Below are positions 14,925 through 61,026 of a stretch of DNA of 64,000 nt, one piece after another. The position numbers and the translations under genes were made by a program. The notes beneath the pieces were generated by a model. The model did not search any database, was not told the DNA's origin, and worked only from the letters and a program-made list of their open reading frames with translations. How positions within the stretch are numbered: position 1 is the first letter of the stretch; every line of letters begins with the position of its first letter. Origin of the DNA: Fidelibacterota bacterium (GTDB taxonomy: Bacteria > Fidelibacterota > UBA2242 > B5-G15); contig JACDNV010000002.1 of assembly GCA_017656425.1 (NCBI GenBank), positions 183,512 through 247,511 of the forward strand. Direction: 5' to 3'.

Positions 14925-14940
14925 ATATATATATATATAT
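14925..14940. repeat. (AT)8 dinucleotide microsatellite in divergent gatC/metE promoter region
   Basis: Direct reading: atatatatatatatat. Confidence 0.9.
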
Positions 14941-15030
14941 AACTTCTATATCTGTTATTAGCAGATTTGGTGGTTTAATTAATTTTCATTATTTTACAAT
15001 GCCGGTCTGTTCACATGAAGGGGAAGGGAG

Positions 15031-17178
15031 ATGGATATAAAAGCCTATGCATATGGTTTACCAAGATTGGGAGAGAAAAGGGAGTATAAAAAATTAATAG
15101 AGGGATACTGGAAAGGGAAAATCGATGAGAAGTCTTTGCGGGAGGGAATTGAAAGTTTACAAAGATACATGATTGATAATTATAAAAAGTATGTGGATAT
15201 GTATCCCGTTGGTGAGATAACTTATTATGATAATATGCTCGATATGGCGATAATTGTTGGTTTGTATGATGTACAGAATTTACAGGATTATTATGACCTG
15301 TGTAGAGGGAAAAGAGCATTAAAGCTTACCAAATGGTTTGATACAAATTACCATTATCTCGCTCCTGATTTTTCAGGAAAAGATGTTAAAGAACTCGAAC
15401 TAAAATGGAATAAACCATCTTTTTATAAAAGTAAATTTCCAGATGGCATACCATACCTAATTGGGCCATATACTTTTTTAAAATTATCCAGAGGAGTAGA
15501 TAATAATTTTGAAGAACTTTTGAACAAAATTGGTGAAATCTATACAAAGATATGCTGTAATTTTGAAATTGTTCATATTGAAGAGCCTTCGTTTGTTACA
15601 GACATAAAAAAGTGCGAAATCAAAACCATAGAAGATTTATATAAAAAAATAGCAGAAAGTGGAGTGAAAATAAATCTTATAACATACTATGATAGTATAG
15701 ACTTTTTGAAGGATTTTTATGACTTACCTGTTAAATCGTTTGGAATTGATTTAATAAATGGTAAGGAAAATTTAATTACAATTGAAAAATACGGATTCCC
15801 TGATGATAAGATTTTGATAGCAGGAGTTGTCAATGGTAGAAATATATGGCGTACTGATTTAGAAAGAACATTGAGGTTAATTGAAGATATCTCAAAGCGG
15901 GTAAAAAATATATGGATTTCAAATGCTGGACCATTGTATCATTTACCGATTACGATAAAAAATGAAAATTTCCCAGAAAATATTAAAAAGTCATTGTCTT
16001 TTGCCAATGAGAGGCTTGAGGAATTAAAGGTTTTGAAGTTGTTGCTCAGTTCAGAGAAGGTAAATGAGGATATCATAAAAGATTATGAAAGAAAAAATTT
16101 GGAATATATTTATTTTGATGAAAGAAGCATGCCAAAGGTGGAAAAAAGAAAACATGTTCATTTAGATCTACCGCTTTTTCCAACAACCACCATAGGTAGT
16201 TTTCCTCAAACGAAAGAGGTTAGGGTAATAAGAAATAAATACAAAAATGGATTAATTACAGATATGGAATATAATAATTTTATAAAGCAAAAAATAGGAG
16301 AAGTAATAGAACTCCAGGAAAAGATTGGTCTTGATGTTCTTGTCCATGGGGAGTTCGAACGCAGTGATATGGTTGAGTATTTCGCAGAAAAACTGGATGG
16401 TTTCTTAACTACAAAAAATGGCTGGATAATATCATACGGGACAAGATGTTATAAACCTCCAATTAATTTTGGAAATATTAAACGAACAAAACCTCTTGCT
16501 TTGAACGAAATAGTCTATGCAAGAACCCTTACAGAGAAACCTGTAAAGGCTATTCTGACAGGACCTGTAACTATGATTGCCTGGAGTTATGTGAGAGATG
16601 ACGTGCGAATAGATGTTATAGCAAATCAAATTGCCCTGTGTATAAAGGAAGAAATTGAGGATTTGGTAAAGGAAGGGGTTAAGATAATACAAATAGACGA
16701 ACCTGCTTTTAGAGAAAAGGCACCTCTTAAGAAAAGAAAGTGGAGAAATTATTTTAGATGGGCGGTAAATGCTTTTAACATAGCATCATCTATTGACTCA
16801 GATATTCAGATTCATACTCATATGTGCTATTCCGATTTTGGAGAGATAATGGAATATATTCTGAAGATGAATTTTGATGTTATATCTGTAGAGGCAACTA
16901 GGAGTAGAGGAGAGATATTAGACAGCTTTGAAAAGGTGAATTTCGATAGAGAAATAGGGCTGGGAGTATGGGATGTACATTCTCCAAGAGTTCCGGAGAT
17001 TGATGAAATGTTTAGAGTTGTCGATAGAGCGTTAAAAGTTATCCCACCTGATAAGTTTTGGATAAATCCTGACTGCGGATTGAAAACAAGAGGTTGGGAT
17101 GAGGTAATAGCCTCATTAAATAATATGGTTAAAGTTGCAAATATATTAAGGGCCAGATTTCAAGATAGTAACAAATAG
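15031..17178 (+). CDS. metE: Cobalamin-independent methionine synthase
   Basis: N-terminal MetE pattern (GLPRLGEKREYKKLIEGYW), C-terminal Zn-site HTHMCYSDF, ~715 aa two-domain UroD-like architecture. Confidence 0.9.
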   Translation: MDIKAYAYGLPRLGEKREYKKLIEGYWKGKIDEKSLREGIESLQRYMIDNYKKYVDMYPVGEITYYDNMLDMAIIVGLYDVQNLQDYYDLCRGKRALKLTKWFDTNYHYLAPDFSGKDVKELELKWNKPSFYKSKFPDGIPYLIGPYTFLKLSRGVDNNFEELLNKIGEIYTKICCNFEIVHIEEPSFVTDIKKCEIKTIEDLYKKIAESGVKINLITYYDSIDFLKDFYDLPVKSFGIDLINGKENLITIEKYGFPDDKILIAGVVNGRNIWRTDLERTLRLIEDISKRVKNIWISNAGPLYHLPITIKNENFPENIKKSLSFANERLEELKVLKLLLSSEKVNEDIIKDYERKNLEYIYFDERSMPKVEKRKHVHLDLPLFPTTTIGSFPQTKEVRVIRNKYKNGLITDMEYNNFIKQKIGEVIELQEKIGLDVLVHGEFERSDMVEYFAEKLDGFLTTKNGWIISYGTRCYKPPINFGNIKRTKPLALNEIVYARTLTEKPVKAILTGPVTMIAWSYVRDDVRIDVIANQIALCIKEEIEDLVKEGVKIIQIDEPAFREKAPLKKRKWRNYFRWAVNAFNIASSIDSDIQIHTHMCYSDFGEIMEYILKMNFDVISVEATRSRGEILDSFEKVNFDREIGLGVWDVHSPRVPEIDEMFRVVDRALKVIPPDKFWINPDCGLKTRGWDEVIASLNNMVKVANILRARFQDSNK

Positions 17179-17266: not shown

Positions 17267-17922
17267 CTATAGTTTTTTATGGCAGAACCACCAGTCGTAG
17301 CAGGTATATTTTTCTTTTCTCTTCTGGGCAGATTCCACATCAGATGCCGGCGGTATGATTACCTCGTCTTTAACAAGTTCATTTTCAGGCCAGTTGGCAG
17401 GTATTGCTACTTTATTTGCGTCGGCAACCTGAAATCCTTTGATCATACGTAAGATTTCATCGATATTTCTTCCCAGTTCCTGTGGGTAGTAGAGTATCGC
17501 TCTTATTTTCCCTCGGGATCTACCACAAATACAACCCTGACAGTGTTAGTGCCTTTACCAGGATGAATCAATCCCAATTTTTTACTTATCTCACCGGTAT
17601 CATCGGCTATTACAGAGAATTGAGTTTCAACTTCCAGATTGTCTTTTATCCACTCAACCCATTTAATGTGAGAAAAAACCTGGTCAATGCTTAGCCCTAT
17701 AAGTTCACAGTTTAACTCCTTAAATTTTTCGTATCTTTCCTGGAAAGCGAAAAATTCTGTGGTGCAAACTGGCGTAAAATCTGCAGGATGACTGAAAAAT
17801 ACAAACCATTTTCCTCTAAAATGTTCAGGAAGATTAAAAGTTCCTAAGGTAGTTTTTACTTTCAATTCAGGGAATTTTTCTCCGATTAATGGAAACTTGT
17901 TTTCATTCATTTTGTTCTCCAT
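17267..17922 (-). pseudogene. 1-Cys (Prx6-type) peroxiredoxin, disrupted by a 1-nt deletion (homopolymer)
   Basis: ORF 17503..17922 has PVCTTE peroxidatic Cys motif and stops at …VVDPEGK*; my translation of the -1 frame downstream gives [26 protein letters not shown]…[11 protein letters not shown], the conserved Prx C-terminus; frames rejoin if one A is added to the AAAA run at 17506-17509. Confidence 0.7.
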
Positions 17923-18167: not shown

Positions 18168-20276
18168 ATGGGAGGCGTAATAATGTTTGATAAAATAAAA
18201 AAGCGAGATGGAAGGTTAGTTAAGTTTGATGCTGAAAGAATAACAAATGCTATAGCCAAGGCTGGTAAAGCGACAGGGGAGTTTGATCGCCAGACTGCTG
18301 AAAAGTTAGCCATTAGAGTATTAAATCTCGCTCAGCAAATTATAAAAGATGAAATTCCAACGGTCGAACAGATCCAGGATATTGTCGAGGATGTCTTACT
18401 AACTTCACCTTACAAAAAAACGGCAAAAGCTTACATAATATATCGAGAGCAGCACGCTCGGATAAGAGAAATTATAGCCAAAAGTGGGGTCGATCTGGTT
18501 GATCAATATCTGGAAAAAATAGACTGGCAGGTGAATGAAAACAGTAATATGAGTTTTTCTCTCCAAGGGCTCAATAACTATATTTCTTCTGAGATAAGTA
18601 AAACATATTGGCTTAATAAAATTTATCCGCAAGAGATAAGGAAAGCTCACATCGATGGTGATTTTCATATACATGATCTTGGAATACTTTCTGTATATTG
18701 TGTGGGTTGGGATCTATATGATTTGTTACTTGAAGGGTTTAGGGGTGCCCCTGGTAAGGTTGAAAGTAAACCCGCTAAACATTTTAGATCGGCTCTTGGA
18801 CAAATTGTAAACTTTTTCTATACACTTCAGGGTGAGGCTGCGGGAGCCCAGGCGTTTGCAAATTTTGATACATTACTTGCCCCCTTTATTCGATATGATA
18901 ACCTCAAATTCAGGGATGTAAAGCAGGCAATTCAGGAATTTGTATTTAATGTGAATGTGCCAACTCGCGTTGGTTTCCAGACCCCTTTTACCAATATTAC
19001 ACTCGATCTAACTGTTCCTTCAAATCTAAAAAACACCCCTGTTGTTATTGGTGGAGAGTTAAAGGATGAGACCTATTCAGAATTTCAGGAAGAAATGAAT
19101 TTATTTAATAAAGCTTTTTTTGAAGTTATGATGGAAGGAGATGCTAAGGGACGTGTCTTTACCTTTCCAATTCCAACATACAACATAACAAAAGACTTCG
19201 ATTGGAATAATGAGAATTTAAATGGATTATGGGAGATGACTGCTAAGTATGGCATACCCTATTTTGCTAATTTTATAAATTCAGATATGAATCCTGAGGA
19301 TGCCAGATCAATGTGCTGCAGACTACGCCTTGATACAAGAGTTTTGTATAAAAGGGGTGGTGGACTTTTTGGTGCTAATCCTCTAACAGGAAGTATTGGT
19401 GTGGTGACAATTAATATGCCAAGAATCGGGTATCTTGCGAAAAATGAAGAAGATTTCTTTAATAGACTTGAGAGATTAATGGAGCTTGCAAAAGAAAGTC
19501 TTGAGATCAAGAGAAAGGTACTGGAAAGGTTTACAGCACAAAATCTCTATCCATATGCGAAATATTATCTCAGGAATGTGAAGGAGAGATTTGGTGAATA
19601 CTGGAAAAACCATTTTTCTACAATAGGATTGGTTGGGATGAACGAAGCTCTGCTGAATTTTTTAAAACAGAATATAACAAGTAAAGAGGGAATAGAGCTA
19701 ACAATTAGAGTTCTTGACTTTATGAGGAAGAAGCTACTTGAATTTCAGGAGGAGACTGGCAACAACTACAATCTAGAAGCTACGCCTGCTGAGGGTGCTT
19801 CATATAGGTTAGCAAGAATAGATAAGGATAAATATCCTTTAATTATTTGTGCAAATGAGGAATACTATAAGCATGGAGCCGAGCCATTTTATACAAACTC
19901 TACATCACTACCAGTAAACTGTACCGATGACATATTTGAGGCACTTGAACTGCAAAATGAAATACAGACAAAGTATACAGGTGGAACGGTACTACATATT
20001 TATCTTGGTGAGAAAGTAGACAATCATGAGGCTATAAAATTACTTACTAAGAAGATATGTGAAAACTATAAATTGCCATATTTTACCTTTACCCCAACTT
20101 TCAGTGTGTGTGAAGAGCATGGATATATTGCAGGTGAGCATGAAAGGTGTCCAAGGTGTGGTAATGAATGTGAAGTTTACTCTCGAGTCGTGGGGTATTT
20201 AAGACCTACGAATCAATGGAATAAAGGAAAGAGAGAAGAGTTTAAACTCAGAAAATCTTTTAAAGTAAAACAGTGA
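18168..20276 (+). CDS. nrdD: Anaerobic ribonucleoside-triphosphate reductase (class III)
   Basis: N-terminal ATP-cone (MFDKIKKRDGRLVKFD), C-terminal Zn-ribbon CPRCG and glycyl-radical motif RVVGYLRP. Confidence 0.9.
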   Translation: MGGVIMFDKIKKRDGRLVKFDAERITNAIAKAGKATGEFDRQTAEKLAIRVLNLAQQIIKDEIPTVEQIQDIVEDVLLTSPYKKTAKAYIIYREQHARIREIIAKSGVDLVDQYLEKIDWQVNENSNMSFSLQGLNNYISSEISKTYWLNKIYPQEIRKAHIDGDFHIHDLGILSVYCVGWDLYDLLLEGFRGAPGKVESKPAKHFRSALGQIVNFFYTLQGEAAGAQAFANFDTLLAPFIRYDNLKFRDVKQAIQEFVFNVNVPTRVGFQTPFTNITLDLTVPSNLKNTPVVIGGELKDETYSEFQEEMNLFNKAFFEVMMEGDAKGRVFTFPIPTYNITKDFDWNNENLNGLWEMTAKYGIPYFANFINSDMNPEDARSMCCRLRLDTRVLYKRGGGLFGANPLTGSIGVVTINMPRIGYLAKNEEDFFNRLERLMELAKESLEIKRKVLERFTAQNLYPYAKYYLRNVKERFGEYWKNHFSTIGLVGMNEALLNFLKQNITSKEGIELTIRVLDFMRKKLLEFQEETGNNYNLEATPAEGASYRLARIDKDKYPLIICANEEYYKHGAEPFYTNSTSLPVNCTDDIFEALELQNEIQTKYTGGTVLHIYLGEKVDNHEAIKLLTKKICENYKLPYFTFTPTFSVCEEHGYIAGEHERCPRCGNECEVYSRVVGYLRPTNQWNKGKREEFKLRKSFKVKQ

Positions 20277-20962
20277 AAATTGGCGGTTTCCAGAAGTTTT
20301 CTCTTATTGACTATCCAGGTTTGGTAAGTGCGATTATATTTACCTACGGTTGTAATTTTAGATGTTCATATTGTCAGAATCCAGAACTAATTAATGAAAG
20401 TTTTCAAGATTTTATTAGTGAGGATGAAATTTTTGATTTTTTGAAGAAAAGGAAAAGTAAGATCGATGGGGTGGTCATTACCGGTGGAGAACCTCTAATA
20501 CAAAATGATCTGCCAAATTTTATATATAAAATAAAATTATTGGATTACAAAGTAAAAATTGATACAAATGGGAGTATACCCCATGTTATTAAGGATTTAA
20601 TTAGTAAACGTTTAATAGACTATATTGCAATGGATGTGAAGGCTCCATTTGATAAATACAATTTCGTCATAAATGTAAAAACAGATTACACGCAGATGAT
20701 AAAAGAAAGTATAAAGTTAATTATGAATTCTGGCTTGCCCTATGAATTTAGAACAACATATATAAAGCAATTTCTTTCATATGAAGATGTAATCAGAATT
20801 GCAAAAAGTATATCCGGAGCAGATTTGTTTGTAATACAAAAATTGCAAATAAGAAAGGTTTATATGCCTGATTTAATTGTTCCGTCAGTTTATGAAGAGG
20901 ATGAATTAAAGAATTTGAAAAATCAAGTTCTAAAATATGTTAAAAGGTGTTTAATTCGCTAA
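20273..20962 (+). CDS. nrdG: Anaerobic RNR activating protein (radical SAM)
   Basis: CNFRCSYCQN radical-SAM cluster motif; 4-nt overlap with nrdD. Confidence 0.85.
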   Translation: MKIGGFQKFSLIDYPGLVSAIIFTYGCNFRCSYCQNPELINESFQDFISEDEIFDFLKKRKSKIDGVVITGGEPLIQNDLPNFIYKIKLLDYKVKIDTNGSIPHVIKDLISKRLIDYIAMDVKAPFDKYNFVINVKTDYTQMIKESIKLIMNSGLPYEFRTTYIKQFLSYEDVIRIAKSISGADLFVIQKLQIRKVYMPDLIVPSVYEEDELKNLKNQVLKYVKRCLIR

Positions 20963-22119: not shown

Positions 22120-22764
22120 ATGTTTTTAAGAGAAGATGATAAGGAATTCGTAAAGGGCAAACTTAGTCAAATGGATTCCAGGGTAAAAATAGTATATTTT
22201 ACACAGGAACTCGAATGCCAGTTTTGCAAGGAGACTAGACAACTTTTGGAGGAGATAGTTGAACTCTCGGATAAGCTTGACCTTGAAGTATTCAATTTCC
22301 AGATTGATAAGGATAAAGCTCAGAGGTATGGTATTGACAAAATTCCGGCAATCGCAATGGTAAAAGAGGATGGTATGGATTATGGCATTCGGTTTTATGG
22401 AATCCCAAGCGGTTATGAGTTCATGTCTCTGCTTGAAGATATTATTGATGTTTCAAATGGTGAGCATAGTTTCAATAAAGAACAGCTTGAAGAGATCACG
22501 TCAATTACAAAACCAGTTCATATTCAGGTGTTTGTCACACCGACCTGCCCCTACTGTCCATCTGCAGTAAGAATTGCCCACAGACTCGCTATAGCAAGTG
22601 ATGAAATTAAAGCAGATATGGTTGAGGTTACTGAATTTCCGTACTTGGCTACAAAGTATAATGTCAGAGGTGTGCCTAAATCAATTATAAATGAATCGGT
22701 ATCGATCGAAGGTGCAGTTCCTGAGAGTGTATTTATTTCAAAAGTAAAAGAAGCTGTTTCATGA
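22120..22764 (+). CDS. Protein-disulfide oxidoreductase-like (two thioredoxin-fold units, CQFC and CPYC)
   Basis: Two CXXC motifs ~110 aa apart, glutaredoxin-like/PfPDO architecture. Confidence 0.6.
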   Translation: MFLREDDKEFVKGKLSQMDSRVKIVYFTQELECQFCKETRQLLEEIVELSDKLDLEVFNFQIDKDKAQRYGIDKIPAIAMVKEDGMDYGIRFYGIPSGYEFMSLLEDIIDVSNGEHSFNKEQLEEITSITKPVHIQVFVTPTCPYCPSAVRIAHRLAIASDEIKADMVEVTEFPYLATKYNVRGVPKSIINESVSIEGAVPESVFISKVKEAVS

Positions 22765-23905: not shown

Positions 23906-24322
23906 ATGAAAGTTATAGTACAGCGAACAAGTGGCAATACTTTTATTGCAAAGGGGGAATCCAATCACTGGGTCGTAATGGATACAGATGAGAAATTTGG
24001 TGGTAATTCTGCCGGGAGTAAACCAGTAGAGCTATTACTAATGGCACTGGGTGGCTGCACAGGTATGGATATCGAAAGTCTTGTAAATAAAATGCGTACA
24101 CCGGTGGATGATTTCAGAATAGAAATCGAGGGAGAAAGAGTCGATGAACATCCCAAAGTTTTTACGAGAATTGAAATAGTTTATAAGTTTTGGGGTAAGA
24201 ATCTAAATGAGGATAACATTAAGAAAGCTGTTGAGCTTTCCCATACGAGATATTGTACAGTAAGTGCGATTCTAAAAAAGACTTGTGATATAAGTTATAG
24301 AATAGAGATAAATTCTGACTGA
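23906..24322 (+). CDS. OsmC/Ohr family peroxiredoxin-like protein
   Basis: 138 aa, OsmC fold pattern with two conserved Cys (LGGCTGMD … RYCTVS). Confidence 0.75.
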   Translation: MKVIVQRTSGNTFIAKGESNHWVVMDTDEKFGGNSAGSKPVELLLMALGGCTGMDIESLVNKMRTPVDDFRIEIEGERVDEHPKVFTRIEIVYKFWGKNLNEDNIKKAVELSHTRYCTVSAILKKTCDISYRIEINSD

Positions 24323-32272: not shown

Positions 32273-33220
32273 TTACTCGATTGCTTTTGCAGTAAATTTT
32301 TTGCCGCTGTACTTCTCGAAATTATCGCCGAAGCTACTTTTAAGCGCCGTTATTGCTACTTCTAACTGATCATTACTGGGTTTATGTGTCGTAATTCTCT
32401 GAAGTGCCAGCCCGGGGAAAGATAAAATTTTAATAAATATGTTATTTTGATTTCTTGATGTTATTTTAAGAAGTTCATATGAAATACCCAACACAGGTAA
32501 AAGTAGTATAAAATGATAAAATAACCTGTTATAAATCGTAATATTTCCCTTAATTAGAATAATAATGGTATCAATAATTGCAAAGGTTACTATGGAAAAT
32601 ATTAGCATTACAAAAATAAAGCTCGTGCCACATCTGGGGTGATGGGTCGAGTATTTTTTCGCATTTTCTACATTCAATTCCTCTCCATTCTCGAAAGCAA
32701 ATACTACCTGATGTTCAGCTCCGTGGTATTGAAATATTCTTTTTATATCCTTAAGAAAGTTTATAAATATTAGATAAGCTACAAAAAAACCAATTCGTAG
32801 AAGCCCCGAGCTCAGGTTAAAGAGAGCAGCCTTTTGTTCTATATTGAATAATTTGGTTGTAAGAAGTATAGGTAGGTAGAAAAAGAATACAAAGGCAACA
32901 ACGATTGCAATAGAAAAAGATAGAAAGCTGTAGATTTTTTCTTTCAAACTTTCTTTTTTTATATCGGATTTTTCTTCAAAAACTTTGGCTGAAAATTGTA
33001 ATGCTTCAAGTCCAATTTTTAGTGACTCATATAAAGAGATTATACCTCGAATTAAAGGTAGTGATAGGAATTTATATCTTTTTGTAAGGGATTTATAATC
33101 TTTTCTAATAGTTTCGATTTCGCCATTTGGATTTCTGACTGATACTGCGTATCCATCGGGTCCTCTCATCAAAACCCCTTCTATCACAGCCTGACCGCCA
33201 ACTAAAATAGGTTCGTTCAT
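32273..33220 (-). CDS. DUF1385-family membrane-associated protein (commonly upstream of prfA)
   Basis: N-terminal GGQAVIEGVLMRG signature and conserved gene order with prfA/prmC. Confidence 0.55.
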   Translation of the reverse strand: MNEPILVGGQAVIEGVLMRGPDGYAVSVRNPNGEIETIRKDYKSLTKRYKFLSLPLIRGIISLYESLKIGLEALQFSAKVFEEKSDIKKESLKEKIYSFLSFSIAIVVAFVFFFYLPILLTTKLFNIEQKAALFNLSSGLLRIGFFVAYLIFINFLKDIKRIFQYHGAEHQVVFAFENGEELNVENAKKYSTHHPRCGTSFIFVMLIFSIVTFAIIDTIIILIKGNITIYNRLFYHFILLLPVLGISYELLKITSRNQNNIFIKILSFPGLALQRITTHKPSNDQLEVAITALKSSFGDNFEKYSGKKFTAKAIE

Positions 33221-33276
33221 TTTAAATTATCCTGATAGTTTGGATTTTATTGGTTGAAATTTATGTCTATCGGGTG

Positions 33277-33498
33277 CTAACCCTTGTTACTGTTTTCCTT
33301 GTTTAAATTGTATTTACGTAGAAATTTTTCAATTCTTCCTGCGGAATCGACAAGTTTTTGTTTGCCCGTGAAAAATGGGTGACAATTAGAACATATTTCC
33401 ACTTTTATTTCAGACCTTATTGACCTTGTTATAAAGGTATTACCGCATGCACAGGTTACTTTACAAATTTTATATTCTGGATGTATTCCTTTCTTCAT
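33277..33498 (-). CDS. rpmE: 50S ribosomal protein L31 (Zn-ribbon type)
   Basis: [10 protein letters not shown]…CxC…[10 protein letters not shown]. Confidence 0.9.
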
Positions 33499-33899
33499 TT
33501 CCGTCCCTTCATTGTTTTAAAAGCTGTTGAATTTAATGAATTTATCTTGTTAAATGCAATATGGAAGAAGAAAGTGATTGAAAAATTCTCCTTAAAAATC
33601 ATAGGAAAATGTGATTATTCTAAATTTATAATGAGGACCAAAACAGGGAATTCTTCAAAAAAGTTATGTGTAAATTTGGTAAAATGATCTATATCTGAGA
33701 ATTATATAACTACATCTATATCAGAAGACATGGTTCCATAAAGCCTTAATCCCATATTTATCCACTCTTTATAAATTTTTATGTTATTATCAGATAAATT
33801 TTCTGGAATTTTTCCCGAACTTCCATGAAGGTTTACAAATAATGAAAATGAAATTAAGATTAAAAATATTTTAGTTTCATCATTTCCTCCCAATTTTAT

Positions 33900-34401
33900 T
33901 TTTCAATTATAATTTTTCACTTACTGTCACAACCCGAAATGAACACCTCATACCCACTATTTTCTAATAATTGAAAGCTTTTATTTTTTGATATGCTATG
34001 CCATACATGTCATAAATGATTGTACCAACTATTGAAAGCTCTGATATTTCAAAAGCTACTCACATCCAAGGAATGAAAGGATCAGGATAATTTTGATATA
34101 GTTTATATCCAAGTAGAGTGTTTTGCCCTTTTTTATCCCCAATTTCTATTATTGAAAAATTTATTGTATAATTACCCTCATTATCGGAATAAGTTGAAAA
34201 TGTATCTTTGTATTCATTTATAAAACTAACCTTTGCTCCTTGAATACCGATTTTAGAGTAACTATCAAGTACTTTACCTTTTACTATTACTGAAGTTTGT
34301 GGACGTGATTTGGCAATTAAAAGTATTGTAAAAGTGGCAATAGTTATTATTTTAAAGGAACGGCATACAAATAGATGTAATCTCCCCACTGAATTAATCA
34401 C
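33900..34401 (-). pseudogene. Decayed small secreted protein with CarboxypepD_reg-like domain and T9SS C-terminal sorting domain
   Basis: ORF 34060..34401 has signal peptide, beta-sandwich-like segment and LYQNYPDPF (T9SS CTD start) then TGA; my in-frame translation past the TGA gives VAFEISELSIVGTIIYDMYGIAYQKIKAFNY* (CTD-like KIYD.LG block), then a frameshift to …ENSGYEVFISGCDSK*. Confidence 0.5.
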
Positions 34402-59376: not shown

Positions 59377-59883
59377 TTAAAATTTTTTAAAGATTTCTTT
59401 TTTTGCTTTGCATATTGGACATTCATCAGGTGGTATTCCCACATGTGTATAACCGCAGACAGGGCAGATATAAATATCTTCTATTTCGATATCCTGCTCT
59501 TTTTCAACAACTGTTTTTGAATCTCGGTACATTTTCTCGTGAATTTTCTCAGCCTCTAGTGCATAGTGAAAAGATTGGACAGCTAGATTTTCATTTTGAA
59601 GCTGAGCAGAATTTTTAAAAACCGGGTACATTTCGGTTACTTCATAATGTTCACCCTCTATGCAGGATTGTATATTAGCTGGTAAATCATCAGTGAAGAT
59701 TCCTAGGATTCTTGCATGATTTGTTGCATGAACCTGCTCTGCATAGGCAATAGCTTTAAACATTCTTGCGAGATTTTTATATCCCTTTTTCTCGGCTATT
59801 TCGCTATAAATAATATATTTCATATGAGCCATGGACTCCCCGGCAAAGGCGTCCTTTAGAAATTGTTCTGTCATTTTTTTCAT
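59377..59883 (-). CDS. rbr: Rubrerythrin
   Basis: Ferritin-like diiron domain (AFAGES…EQVH…E..H) + C-terminal rubredoxin-like CPVCGYTH…CPICK; start set at MKKMTEQ Met adjacent to fur stop rather than the longer track ORF. Confidence 0.85.
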   Translation of the reverse strand: MKKMTEQFLKDAFAGESMAHMKYIIYSEIAEKKGYKNLARMFKAIAYAEQVHATNHARILGIFTDDLPANIQSCIEGEHYEVTEMYPVFKNSAQLQNENLAVQSFHYALEAEKIHEKMYRDSKTVVEKEQDIEIEDIYICPVCGYTHVGIPPDECPICKAKKEIFKKF

Positions 59884-59884
59884 T

Positions 59885-60316
59885 TTATTCACTTTCTTCA
59901 CTTTTCTGGCAGTCTTTGCATATGCCTTTGAAATATCCATGTATTTCCTGTATTAGATGACCTCTGACTTTTGCATATTTTCCCTCAGCAAGCGGGCATC
60001 TTACGTTAATGTCAAAAATTCTTCCACACTTTTTACATAAAAAATGGTGATGATTTTTGCGTTTTATTTCATATCGAGCTTCGCTACCTGTGATTAGAAT
60101 TTCATCTGCTATCCCCGCTTCGACAAATCCGGCAAGGGTGTTGTATACAGTAGTTCTACTTGCTGTCGGGATATCTTTTCTTATTTCTTTAAAAATGTTA
60201 TCGACAGTCGGATGATCCTCATTTTCAGATAGTATCTGGTATATTCTCACTCGCGGGTAAGTTGGCTTAATTCCCTTTTCACTTAATATTTTCTTAACTT
60301 CATCAATTGTAATCAT
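59885..60316 (-). CDS. Fur-family metalloregulator (PerR-like by context)
   Basis: Winged helix + HHHFLCKKCGRIFDI…C..C metal sites; heads a peroxide-stress operon. Confidence 0.8.
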   Translation of the reverse strand: MITIDEVKKILSEKGIKPTYPRVRIYQILSENEDHPTVDNIFKEIRKDIPTASRTTVYNTLAGFVEAGIADEILITGSEARYEIKRKNHHHFLCKKCGRIFDINVRCPLAEGKYAKVRGHLIQEIHGYFKGICKDCQKSEESE

Positions 60317-60328
60317 TACAAAAGTATA

Positions 60329-60348
60329 TTAATTACAAATATAATTAA
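60329..60348. promoter_or_regulatory. Inverted repeat TTAATTA-N6-TAATTAA immediately upstream of the fur-like gene
   Basis: Direct reading; 13 bp upstream of the ATG; candidate autoregulatory Fur/PerR operator. Confidence 0.25.
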
Positions 60349-60360
60349 TGTCAAGAAATT

Positions 60361-61026
60361 TTATTTAAATATGTCTCCTGTCTCATTATACCAGAATATA
60401 AAATCAATATAATAAATTGGTATACCCAGGTTTTTTGAAAAATTATAAATCCTTTTTTCAATATATAAATAATGACGTCGGCTCATGCTATAATCAATAC
60501 TATCTATTATACCGTATTTTTTTAAATTTTTCAATATATGTCTGTCAAGTATTGCAAGTTTTCTGCCTATCCAAATATTTCTTAGAAAATGACTTGCCTC
60601 TTTATAACCAAACCCTTTAATGTTTTTTACAAGTATCTCTCTTATTCTCTTTACATCATTATCTGTTTTTATTATTTCTAAAATCTTATCTATTTTCCCA
60701 TTATCTAAGTCTAATCTCAGTTGAGATAGGTAGCTGAGTTTGTTATTTGGAAATCTTACACCATACAGACAATTTTTTAAAGTGCTTTTGTTCAAGTTTA
60801 TAAATGCGTTGGTTTCTTTTATCTTTTTTACCGTTTCCCAGCAGACCCTTGCTTTCGATTGAGGGGTCAAAATGCAAAATATTAGTTCAAATAAAATTTC
60901 ATATTTATCAAATCTATCCCAGATATTTTTAAATTCCAGCAGACGGTTATCTATTTGTAGTTTTAGCTTTTTGTATAATTTTTGAAGAGTATCGAATTCA
61001 CCCACATTATACTCAAAGTTTAACAT
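60361..61026 (-). CDS. ogg: Archaeal-type 8-oxoguanine DNA glycosylase/AP lyase (Ogg2-like, HhH-GPD)
   Basis: HhH-GPD motif GFGYKEASHFLRN…LDRHI; ~220 aa. Confidence 0.65.
   Translation of the reverse strand: MLNFEYNVGEFDTLQKLYKKLKLQIDNRLLEFKNIWDRFDKYEILFELIFCILTPQSKARVCWETVKKIKETNAFINLNKSTLKNCLYGVRFPNNKLSYLSQLRLDLDNGKIDKILEIIKTDNDVKRIREILVKNIKGFGYKEASHFLRNIWIGRKLAILDRHILKNLKKYGIIDSIDYSMSRRHYLYIEKRIYNFSKNLGIPIYYIDFIFWYNETGDIFK

Follow-up and report, generated by a model that had tools for sequence, protein, structure and literature searches.

A peroxiredoxin gene of a Marinimicrobia lineage, split by a single-base loss in an A-run, is very probably a young pseudogene fixed in its population

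A peroxiredoxin gene that breaks off at a short run of A's, with the rest of its coding sequence continuing undamaged in the -1 frame directly downstream, raises a set of simple questions: has the organism lost the enzyme through a recent inactivating mutation; has a base that the genome still possesses been dropped during sequencing or assembly; or does a slippage-prone site switch the expression of the gene? These were the three explanations left standing by the original prediction, which was made from the letters of the DNA alone, for a locus within a 64,000-nt stretch of contig JACDNV010000002.1 (assembly GCA_017656425.1), referred to as the window throughout. The answer that is argued for here is that the locus is very probably a genuine, evolutionarily young and population-fixed pseudogene of an archaeal-type Prx6-subfamily peroxiredoxin in Marinimicrobia/Neomarinimicrobiota.

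The anatomy of the break, as first described, needed hardly any correction. The N-terminal 139 aa with the PVCTTE motif, the TAA and the run of four A's preceding it are placed exactly where they had been reported, provided that the coordinates are read on the minus strand (Table 1), on which the end of the N-terminal ORF reads GAT CCC GAG GGA AAA TAA. The claim of an intact C-terminal half directly downstream holds as well, as the -1 frame can be read from 17506 through the PANWP motif and the CYDWWFC-type C-terminus to its stop, and gives a match to the 1-cysPrx_C domain. Adding one A does restore a continuous protein, although its length is 218 aa (214 aa if the second ATG is used) and not the approximately 217 aa predicted, and a tblastn search of the window with this repaired protein returns two 100% identical segments meeting at the A-run. 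The second ATG is probably the true start, since it has a GGAG 6 nt upstream and is the one chosen by independent gene callers (135 aa); the resulting repaired length of 214 aa agrees with the commonest homologue lengths, 213-214 aa. The gene has a GC content of 38%, the window one of 34% and nrdD one of 37%, a composition in which no foreign origin is clearly recognizable.

Table 1. Features of the split peroxiredoxin gene and of its surroundings (positions are counted from the first nucleotide of the window)
Feature	Position	Strand	Remark
Peroxiredoxin N-terminal fragment	17506..17922	-	139 codons from ATG 17922, 135 from ATG 17910; AhpC-TSA/thioredoxin-fold core with the peroxidatic Cys in PVCTTE
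First ATG	17922-17920	-	From translation
Second ATG	17910-17908	-	GGAG 6 nt upstream
W39 nonsense site in haplotype L086	17806	-	G>A, TGG -> TGA
Peroxidatic Cys53 codon (PVCTTE)	17764..17766	-	From translation; invariant in all 31 aligned sequences
Frameshift site G GGA AAA	17506..17512	-	Four-A run at 17509-17506
Premature TAA	17503..17505	-	Directly 3' of the A-run; created by the frameshift
C-terminal 79 codons and stop, -1 frame	17267..17506	-	Undamaged; stop at 17269-17267
Only ATG ORF in the -1 frame	17267-17446	-	59 aa, Met161 onward
Cys208 codon	17302-17300	-	In CYDWWFC, -1 frame
Cys214 codon	17284-17282	-	In CYDWWFC, -1 frame
metE	15031-17178	+	On one side of the peroxiredoxin gene
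nrdD-nrdG	18168-20962	+	On the other side of the peroxiredoxin gene
Two-domain thioredoxin/glutaredoxin-like protein, 214 aa	22120-22764	+	Thioredoxin_3/Glutaredoxin matches
OsmC-like protein	23906-24322	+	A few kb from the dead peroxiredoxin gene
Rubrerythrin	59377-59940	-	Pfam Rubrerythrin and rubredoxin-like domain
Fur/PerR-family regulator	59885-60316	-	Oxidative-stress cluster
Ogg-type 8-oxoguanine DNA glycosylase	60361-61026	-	Oxidative-stress cluster

The identity of the protein, once computationally repaired, is hardly in dispute: that sequence, and only that sequence, scores 364.5 bits against the NCBIfam peroxiredoxin family PRK13189 (cutoff 211), which, together with intact homologues reading straight through the break, bears out the description of a Prx6-type enzyme split by the loss of a single base in an A/T run. 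Pfam AhpC-TSA is matched by the repaired protein (E 5e-32) and by the N-terminal fragment alone (E 1.2e-30), and 1-cysPrx_C (PF10417) by the repaired protein (E 6.7e-9) and by the -1-frame piece alone (E 1e-9). The solved archaeal-type structures 3w6g, 6itz and 2cv4 are matched end to end with E-values of 1e-78 to 1e-85, the peroxiredoxin of P. horikoshii (3w6g) over residues 12-218 (E 1.5e-85). What the locus does not have is the single uninterrupted ORF for a product of approximately 213 aa that characterizes members of PRK13189, its frame being broken at the A-run and closed by the TAA next to it, so the locus is, as far as its sequence tells, a pseudogene of this family and not a functional member.

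The label “1-Cys peroxiredoxin”, under which the gene was first described, deserves some care. Four cysteines are present in the repaired protein (C53, C72, C208 and C214), and three of them (C53, C208 and C214) do not vary across an alignment of 31 sequences, nor do P46 and T50, which with C53 make up the PxxxTxxC motif of the PVCTTE region. The C-terminal CxDWWFC cysteine pair, which aligns with the CYDWWFC of the P. horikoshii enzyme PhPrx, is what makes the label questionable: ApTPx of A. pernix depends for its activity on each of Cys50, Cys207 and Cys213, and it is the thioredoxin system that reduces the disulfide formed between Cys50 and Cys213 (PMC7465337); Cys207 and Cys213 are the equivalents of C208 and C214 here. 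The name is thus right as that of a domain family, whereas as a mechanism it is probably wrong, and the protein is best placed in the Prx6 subfamily by sequence. With the archaeal-type Prx6 enzymes (ApTPx, 2cv4; PhPrx, 3w6g; TkPrx of T. kodakarensis, 6itz) the repaired protein has in common the PVCTTE cysteine, the 1-cysPrx_C arm and the CxDWWFC pair; unlike them, it belongs to a bacterial (Marinimicrobia) host, and its gene is broken by a -1 shift after codon 139, with a truncated product to be expected. Mammalian PRDX6 and true 1-Cys peroxiredoxins (1prx, 5b6m) are alike in fold and C-terminal domain but more distant (E ~3e-31, residues 12-199), and they do not have the resolving cysteine, in contrast to the CxDWWFC pair of the protein described here. 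The nearest intact relatives are 79% identical and include a protein from Kosmotoga (Thermotogota) as well as unnamed metagenome proteins.

How much of the enzyme is left can be read off the structure that AlphaFold2 predicts for the repaired protein (mean pLDDT 80.4), in which strands 130-134 and 139-145 form a hairpin, followed by a helix (150-170) and then by the C-terminal arm. Translation halts where strand 139-145 begins, and the truncated product is devoid of this core strand, of the helix and of the arm bearing C208 and C214; to judge by the model, enzyme activity would be lost. It might be objected that both pieces are called as genes, each with its own Pfam domain, and that the N-terminal product (135 or 139 aa) and the 59-aa product of the -1-frame ORF could assemble into a functional two-piece enzyme. 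However, the -1 frame has no start codon before Met161 (17446), which leaves residues 140-160 (i.e., strand 139-145 and the first half of helix 150-170) untranslatable; being encoded by neither piece, they take away the ground from such an enzyme. No split homologue is found among the best 120 protein matches or the 80 genome loci listed, and the N-terminal piece of one of the haplotypes discussed below (L086) ends as early as residue 38, so the chance that the two pieces work together is vanishingly small.

The reality of the break could be judged from the consensus sequences of three haplotypes: that of the window, that of contig Ga0366835_1001065 from JGI sample 3300033150 (L083; 99.66% identical to the window, with 16 mismatches and a 6-nt indel) and that of contig Ga0366836_1007609 from JGI sample 3300033156 (L086; 99.59% identical, with 17 mismatches). 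Both JGI contigs read GAGGGAAAATAAGAG at the junction, that is, with the same four A's as the window and as a Logan re-assembly of SRR13776093, in which a 41.8-kb contig shows 100% identity with the window across 10,148 nt, the A-run included. The reads behind the Logan contig are probably those from which the metagenome-assembled genome was built, so it is the two JGI samples, whose consecutive IDs suggest one common project, that confirm the four A's in a truly independent way. The four-A run is therefore the consensus state in all three haplotypes from three samples, with no length polymorphism. Eleven differences from the window are common to L083 and L086, and, since all three haplotypes carry the frameshift in spite of this, it has to be older than the haplotype split. 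The 6-nt indel of L083 is an observation in its own right: it concerns a TATATA at 14936-14941 of the window, in the gatC-metE intergenic region, and represents a length polymorphism of a dinucleotide repeat in a population that is nonetheless without polymorphism at the A-run of the peroxiredoxin gene.

An error of sequencing or assembly, with a genome that truly has five A's and an intact gene, was by no means a frivolous suggestion, as homopolymers are the classic sites of indel errors, the source is a metagenome-assembled genome and both halves of the gene are otherwise perfect. It would, however, have to be made identically in the contig of a different assembler (Logan) and in two JGI contigs that represent distinct haplotypes and were built from different reads. 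The background of such errors in the window also speaks against it: its 57 long open frames (58.4 kb) hold 1,436 A/T runs of at least 4 nt, 600 of at least 5 nt and 63 of at least 7 nt, all of them in frame, and there is no other frame break at an A/T run in any of these 57 frames, which leaves no credible room for a problem in homopolymer calling. An intact version should, furthermore, have turned up as a match of approximately 100% in a collection of 5.8 billion protein clusters, in which nothing exceeds 79% identity. An error at this site is thus highly improbable, and this part of the original prediction can be considered as effectively refuted; the break is real and not an artefact.

Homologues that naturally end at the break would have told another story altogether, and none were found: the best 120 protein matches are all 209-227 aa long and uninterrupted, and the 80 genome loci listed, which come from many phyla, all match across query residues ~1-218. 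The junction pattern could be matched in 57 of these 80 loci, and every one of the 57 reads DPxGxIRAxLYYP straight through; some intact homologues encode G-K-I/V-R at the junction. The best full-length relative among the 5.8 billion protein clusters is the one at 79% identity already mentioned, and no intact allele above that value is present there. The 80 matches to the repaired protein include neither the window's own genome nor any syntenic locus. A metagenome scan with NrdD brought up sister lineages whose NrdD is 85% and ~77% identical, none of which has a peroxiredoxin beside nrdD, with metE being nearby at only one sister-lineage locus. In the closest sister lineage (JGI contigs Ga0190360_1002556 and Ga0164318_10004053, NrdD 85% identical), a conserved 79-aa membrane protein is encoded upstream of nrdD instead of the peroxiredoxin and metE, and the second of these contigs additionally has a LacI-type regulator further upstream. 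As these genes are unrelated to those found here, the metE-prx-nrdD arrangement would seem to be specific to the lineage of the window. The comparison of orthologous loci that had been recommended was, accordingly, informative at the level of haplotypes, two of which have the same four A's, but not at that of sister lineages. With no syntenic intact orthologue found in sister species, the ancestral state is to be derived from the reading frame and from the homologues, and these point to GAG GGA AAA ATA AGA, i.e., a run of five A's.

The same comparisons bear on the idea of an expression switch, according to which slipped-strand mispairing would toggle the gene between five A's (on) and four A's (off). 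The lesion is indeed a 1-nt change of homopolymer length and, in principle, reversible, and in contingency genes of the homopolymer type, too, it is the number of identical bases in a run within the ORF that decides the state of the gene. Tracts known to act in this way are, however, typically at least 7 nt long, whereas the run here has 4 nt (ancestrally 5, as just argued), shows a constant length across the three haplotypes and is nothing special among the 1,436 runs of at least 4 nt in the genes of the window. All three haplotypes are off, no on allele exists among the 5.8 billion clusters, and one haplotype (L086) has acquired a second knockout that looks irreversible. Such a switch, which was the third of the explanations proposed at the outset, is hardly believable for a run like this one.

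This second knockout also tells something about the age and the fate of the gene. In L086 alone, W39 has become a stop (Table 1), a change seen in one metagenome contig, and F57, within the PVCTTEF motif, has been replaced by L (17754, T>C); neither W39 nor F57 varies in the alignment of 31 homologues. The new stop is a TGA, which terminates 11 of 45 long ORFs in the window and is for this reason a genuine stop in this host. A nonsense mutation located upstream of the catalytic cysteine and arisen after the frameshift is just what is expected for a gene that is no longer selected. Such signs of relaxed selection, i.e., further disabling mutations, are seen in one haplotype out of three; the copies of the window and L083 have no other flaw in either half, and, as a divergence of ~0.3-0.4% would bring only ~2 neutral changes to 656 bp, purifying selection on these two copies is still statistically compatible with the data. 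The window copy deviates at 6 of the columns that are at least 90% conserved, compared with 0-12 (mean 3.3) for intact homologues, and this lack of an excess of deviations is what suggests that the pseudogene is young. The first of the three explanations, a recent inactivating mutation, is the one that has gained the most from the comparison: the four A's recur in three haplotypes and samples, and a nonsense and an active-site missense change have been added in one of them.

There is one further possibility on which the original prediction was silent, namely that the site is formally a -1 slippage heptamer of the X_XXY_YYZ kind followed by a stop. At G_GGA_AAA_UAA, the tRNA-Gly and tRNA-Lys on GGA AAA could move back by one base, re-pair with GGG AAA and continue with AUA AGA, so that ribosomal -1 frameshifting, whether programmed or adventitious, would keep the gene partly or conditionally functional. 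The site does obey the rule, with the 0-frame stop immediately after it; the slipped product (...EGKIRAIL...) would be the repaired protein; two of the three haplotypes have both halves free of damage; and the translational correction of indels by frameshifting is recognised in the literature (PMC5009743). Yet the loss of one A from GGG-AAAAA generates such a heptamer automatically, so that its presence is not independent evidence, and in-frame X_XXY_YYZ heptamers are plentiful in the ORFs of the window anyway (n=244, or 4.2 per kb). No stimulatory structure, such as a stable hairpin or pseudoknot some 5-8 nt away, is present downstream, where the minimum free energies of 49 nt (-8.1 kcal/mol, z -1.7) and of 94 nt (-16.9 kcal/mol, z -1.0) are both no better than those of shuffles, and the 30 nt upstream contain no Shine-Dalgarno-like element. 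In having neither kind of stimulator, the site differs from the programmed bacterial sites of dnaX and IS911/IS3 (A_AAA_AAG in both cases), which it resembles in having an X_XXY_YYZ motif and a nearby 0-frame stop, slippage being able to fuse the two frames into one functional protein. The motif here, moreover, ends in AAA and not in AAG, the most efficient ending in E. coli, where heptamers without a stimulator yield only 2-10 times the background of ~0.05% (PMC4066793). The break is absent from the homologues examined (at most 79% identity) and limited to haplotypes that are at least 99.6% identical, and the stop at codon 39 of L086, upstream of the slippage site, is again a sign of relaxed selection. 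Programmed use of the heptamer finds no support in any of this, and frameshifting at a level that matters appears unlikely; were it true, the locus would make a modest example of the translational rescue of an indel. A more specific version, in which trace slippage provides a small but useful amount of full-length enzyme and the down-tuned gene is kept by selection in most haplotypes, is very unlikely, and nothing indicates selection for such slippage.

The preferred reading, that of a young and population-fixed pseudogene, can then be laid out as a short sequence of events. One A would have been lost from the putative five-A run, turning GAG GGA AAA ATA AGA into GAG GGA AAA TAA; homopolymers favour replication-slippage deletions of this kind. 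Translation would since stop after residue 139, and with the strand, the long helix and the C-terminal arm with its two regenerating cysteines, the enzyme would have gone. The deletion presumably spread through the population before the present haplotypes diverged, and one of them would later have gained the nonsense mutation and the active-site substitution. The loss was presumably tolerated because other peroxide defences, including rubrerythrin and the OsmC-like protein, remained available.

That the organism has other peroxide defences, as had been asserted, holds at least for the window, which encodes a rubrerythrin, a Fur/PerR-type regulator and an OsmC-like protein, and the presence of such oxidative defences is what makes the loss of the peroxiredoxin plausible; no paralogous peroxiredoxin is found by tblastn within the window. 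The rubrerythrin, the Fur/PerR regulator and the Ogg glycosylase form a compact oxidative-stress cluster on the minus strand (59377-61026). A suspected split gene within it (59377-60316) was rejected, as there are two separate genes, one for a Fur-family regulator and one for rubrerythrin, the overlap of whose ORFs stems from a mechanically assigned ORF start that is too early. The two-domain thioredoxin/glutaredoxin-like product of 22120-22764 may resemble the protein-disulfide-oxidoreductase and glutaredoxin-like reductants that serve this clade of peroxiredoxins, and, if it was the partner of the lost enzyme, the partner has outlived the peroxiredoxin.

The locus is ordinary biology, and its main value lies in annotation: it ought to be recorded as a peroxiredoxin pseudogene and not as two small genes, and it should not be counted in the antioxidant capacity of the lineage when metabolic reconstructions are made. 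This is not a merely theoretical concern, as the public gene calls (Logan SRR13776093_635; Ga0366835_1001065 and Ga0366836_1007609) list the N-terminal piece, of 135 aa (or, in one sample, 34 aa), and the C-terminal piece, of 59 aa, as proteins in their own right; both of the called pieces carry a Pfam match, and split deposits of this sort would inflate peroxiredoxin counts in automated surveys. It is, in addition, a small and clean example of how a real homopolymer frameshift can be told from an assembly artefact without the reads, on the basis of a break shared across haplotypes, a secondary knockout in one of them and a very low background of homopolymer errors. The starts chosen by the public callers are, incidentally, later than those of the longest ORFs for the peroxiredoxin (135 vs. 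139 aa) as well as for NrdD (697 vs. 702 aa).

A few minor observations on the window complete the picture. The products of the neighbouring genes correspond, by exact matches, to the NCBI proteins MBO8130293 to MBO8130330. An Rfam scan of the window gave no match, and scans around the peroxiredoxin gene gave 9 sigma-70 promoter sites, compared with 5.5 +/- 1.9 in shuffles, and no terminators. On the minus strand at 33960-34401, an ORF of 113 aa, which matches CarboxypepD_reg below threshold, has ...LYQNYPDPFIPWM as its last residues before a TGA, beyond which the same frame continues VAFEISELSIVGTIIYDMYG..., resembling a T9SS C-terminal sorting tail; a T9SS sorting domain broken by a stop (34060-34401), however, received no NCBIfam support when the read-through sequence was searched, and its product is not on record. 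The apparent 840-nt gap between long ORFs (33220-34060, also on the minus strand) holds a ribosomal protein L31 gene, as seen by eye in the six-frame translation.
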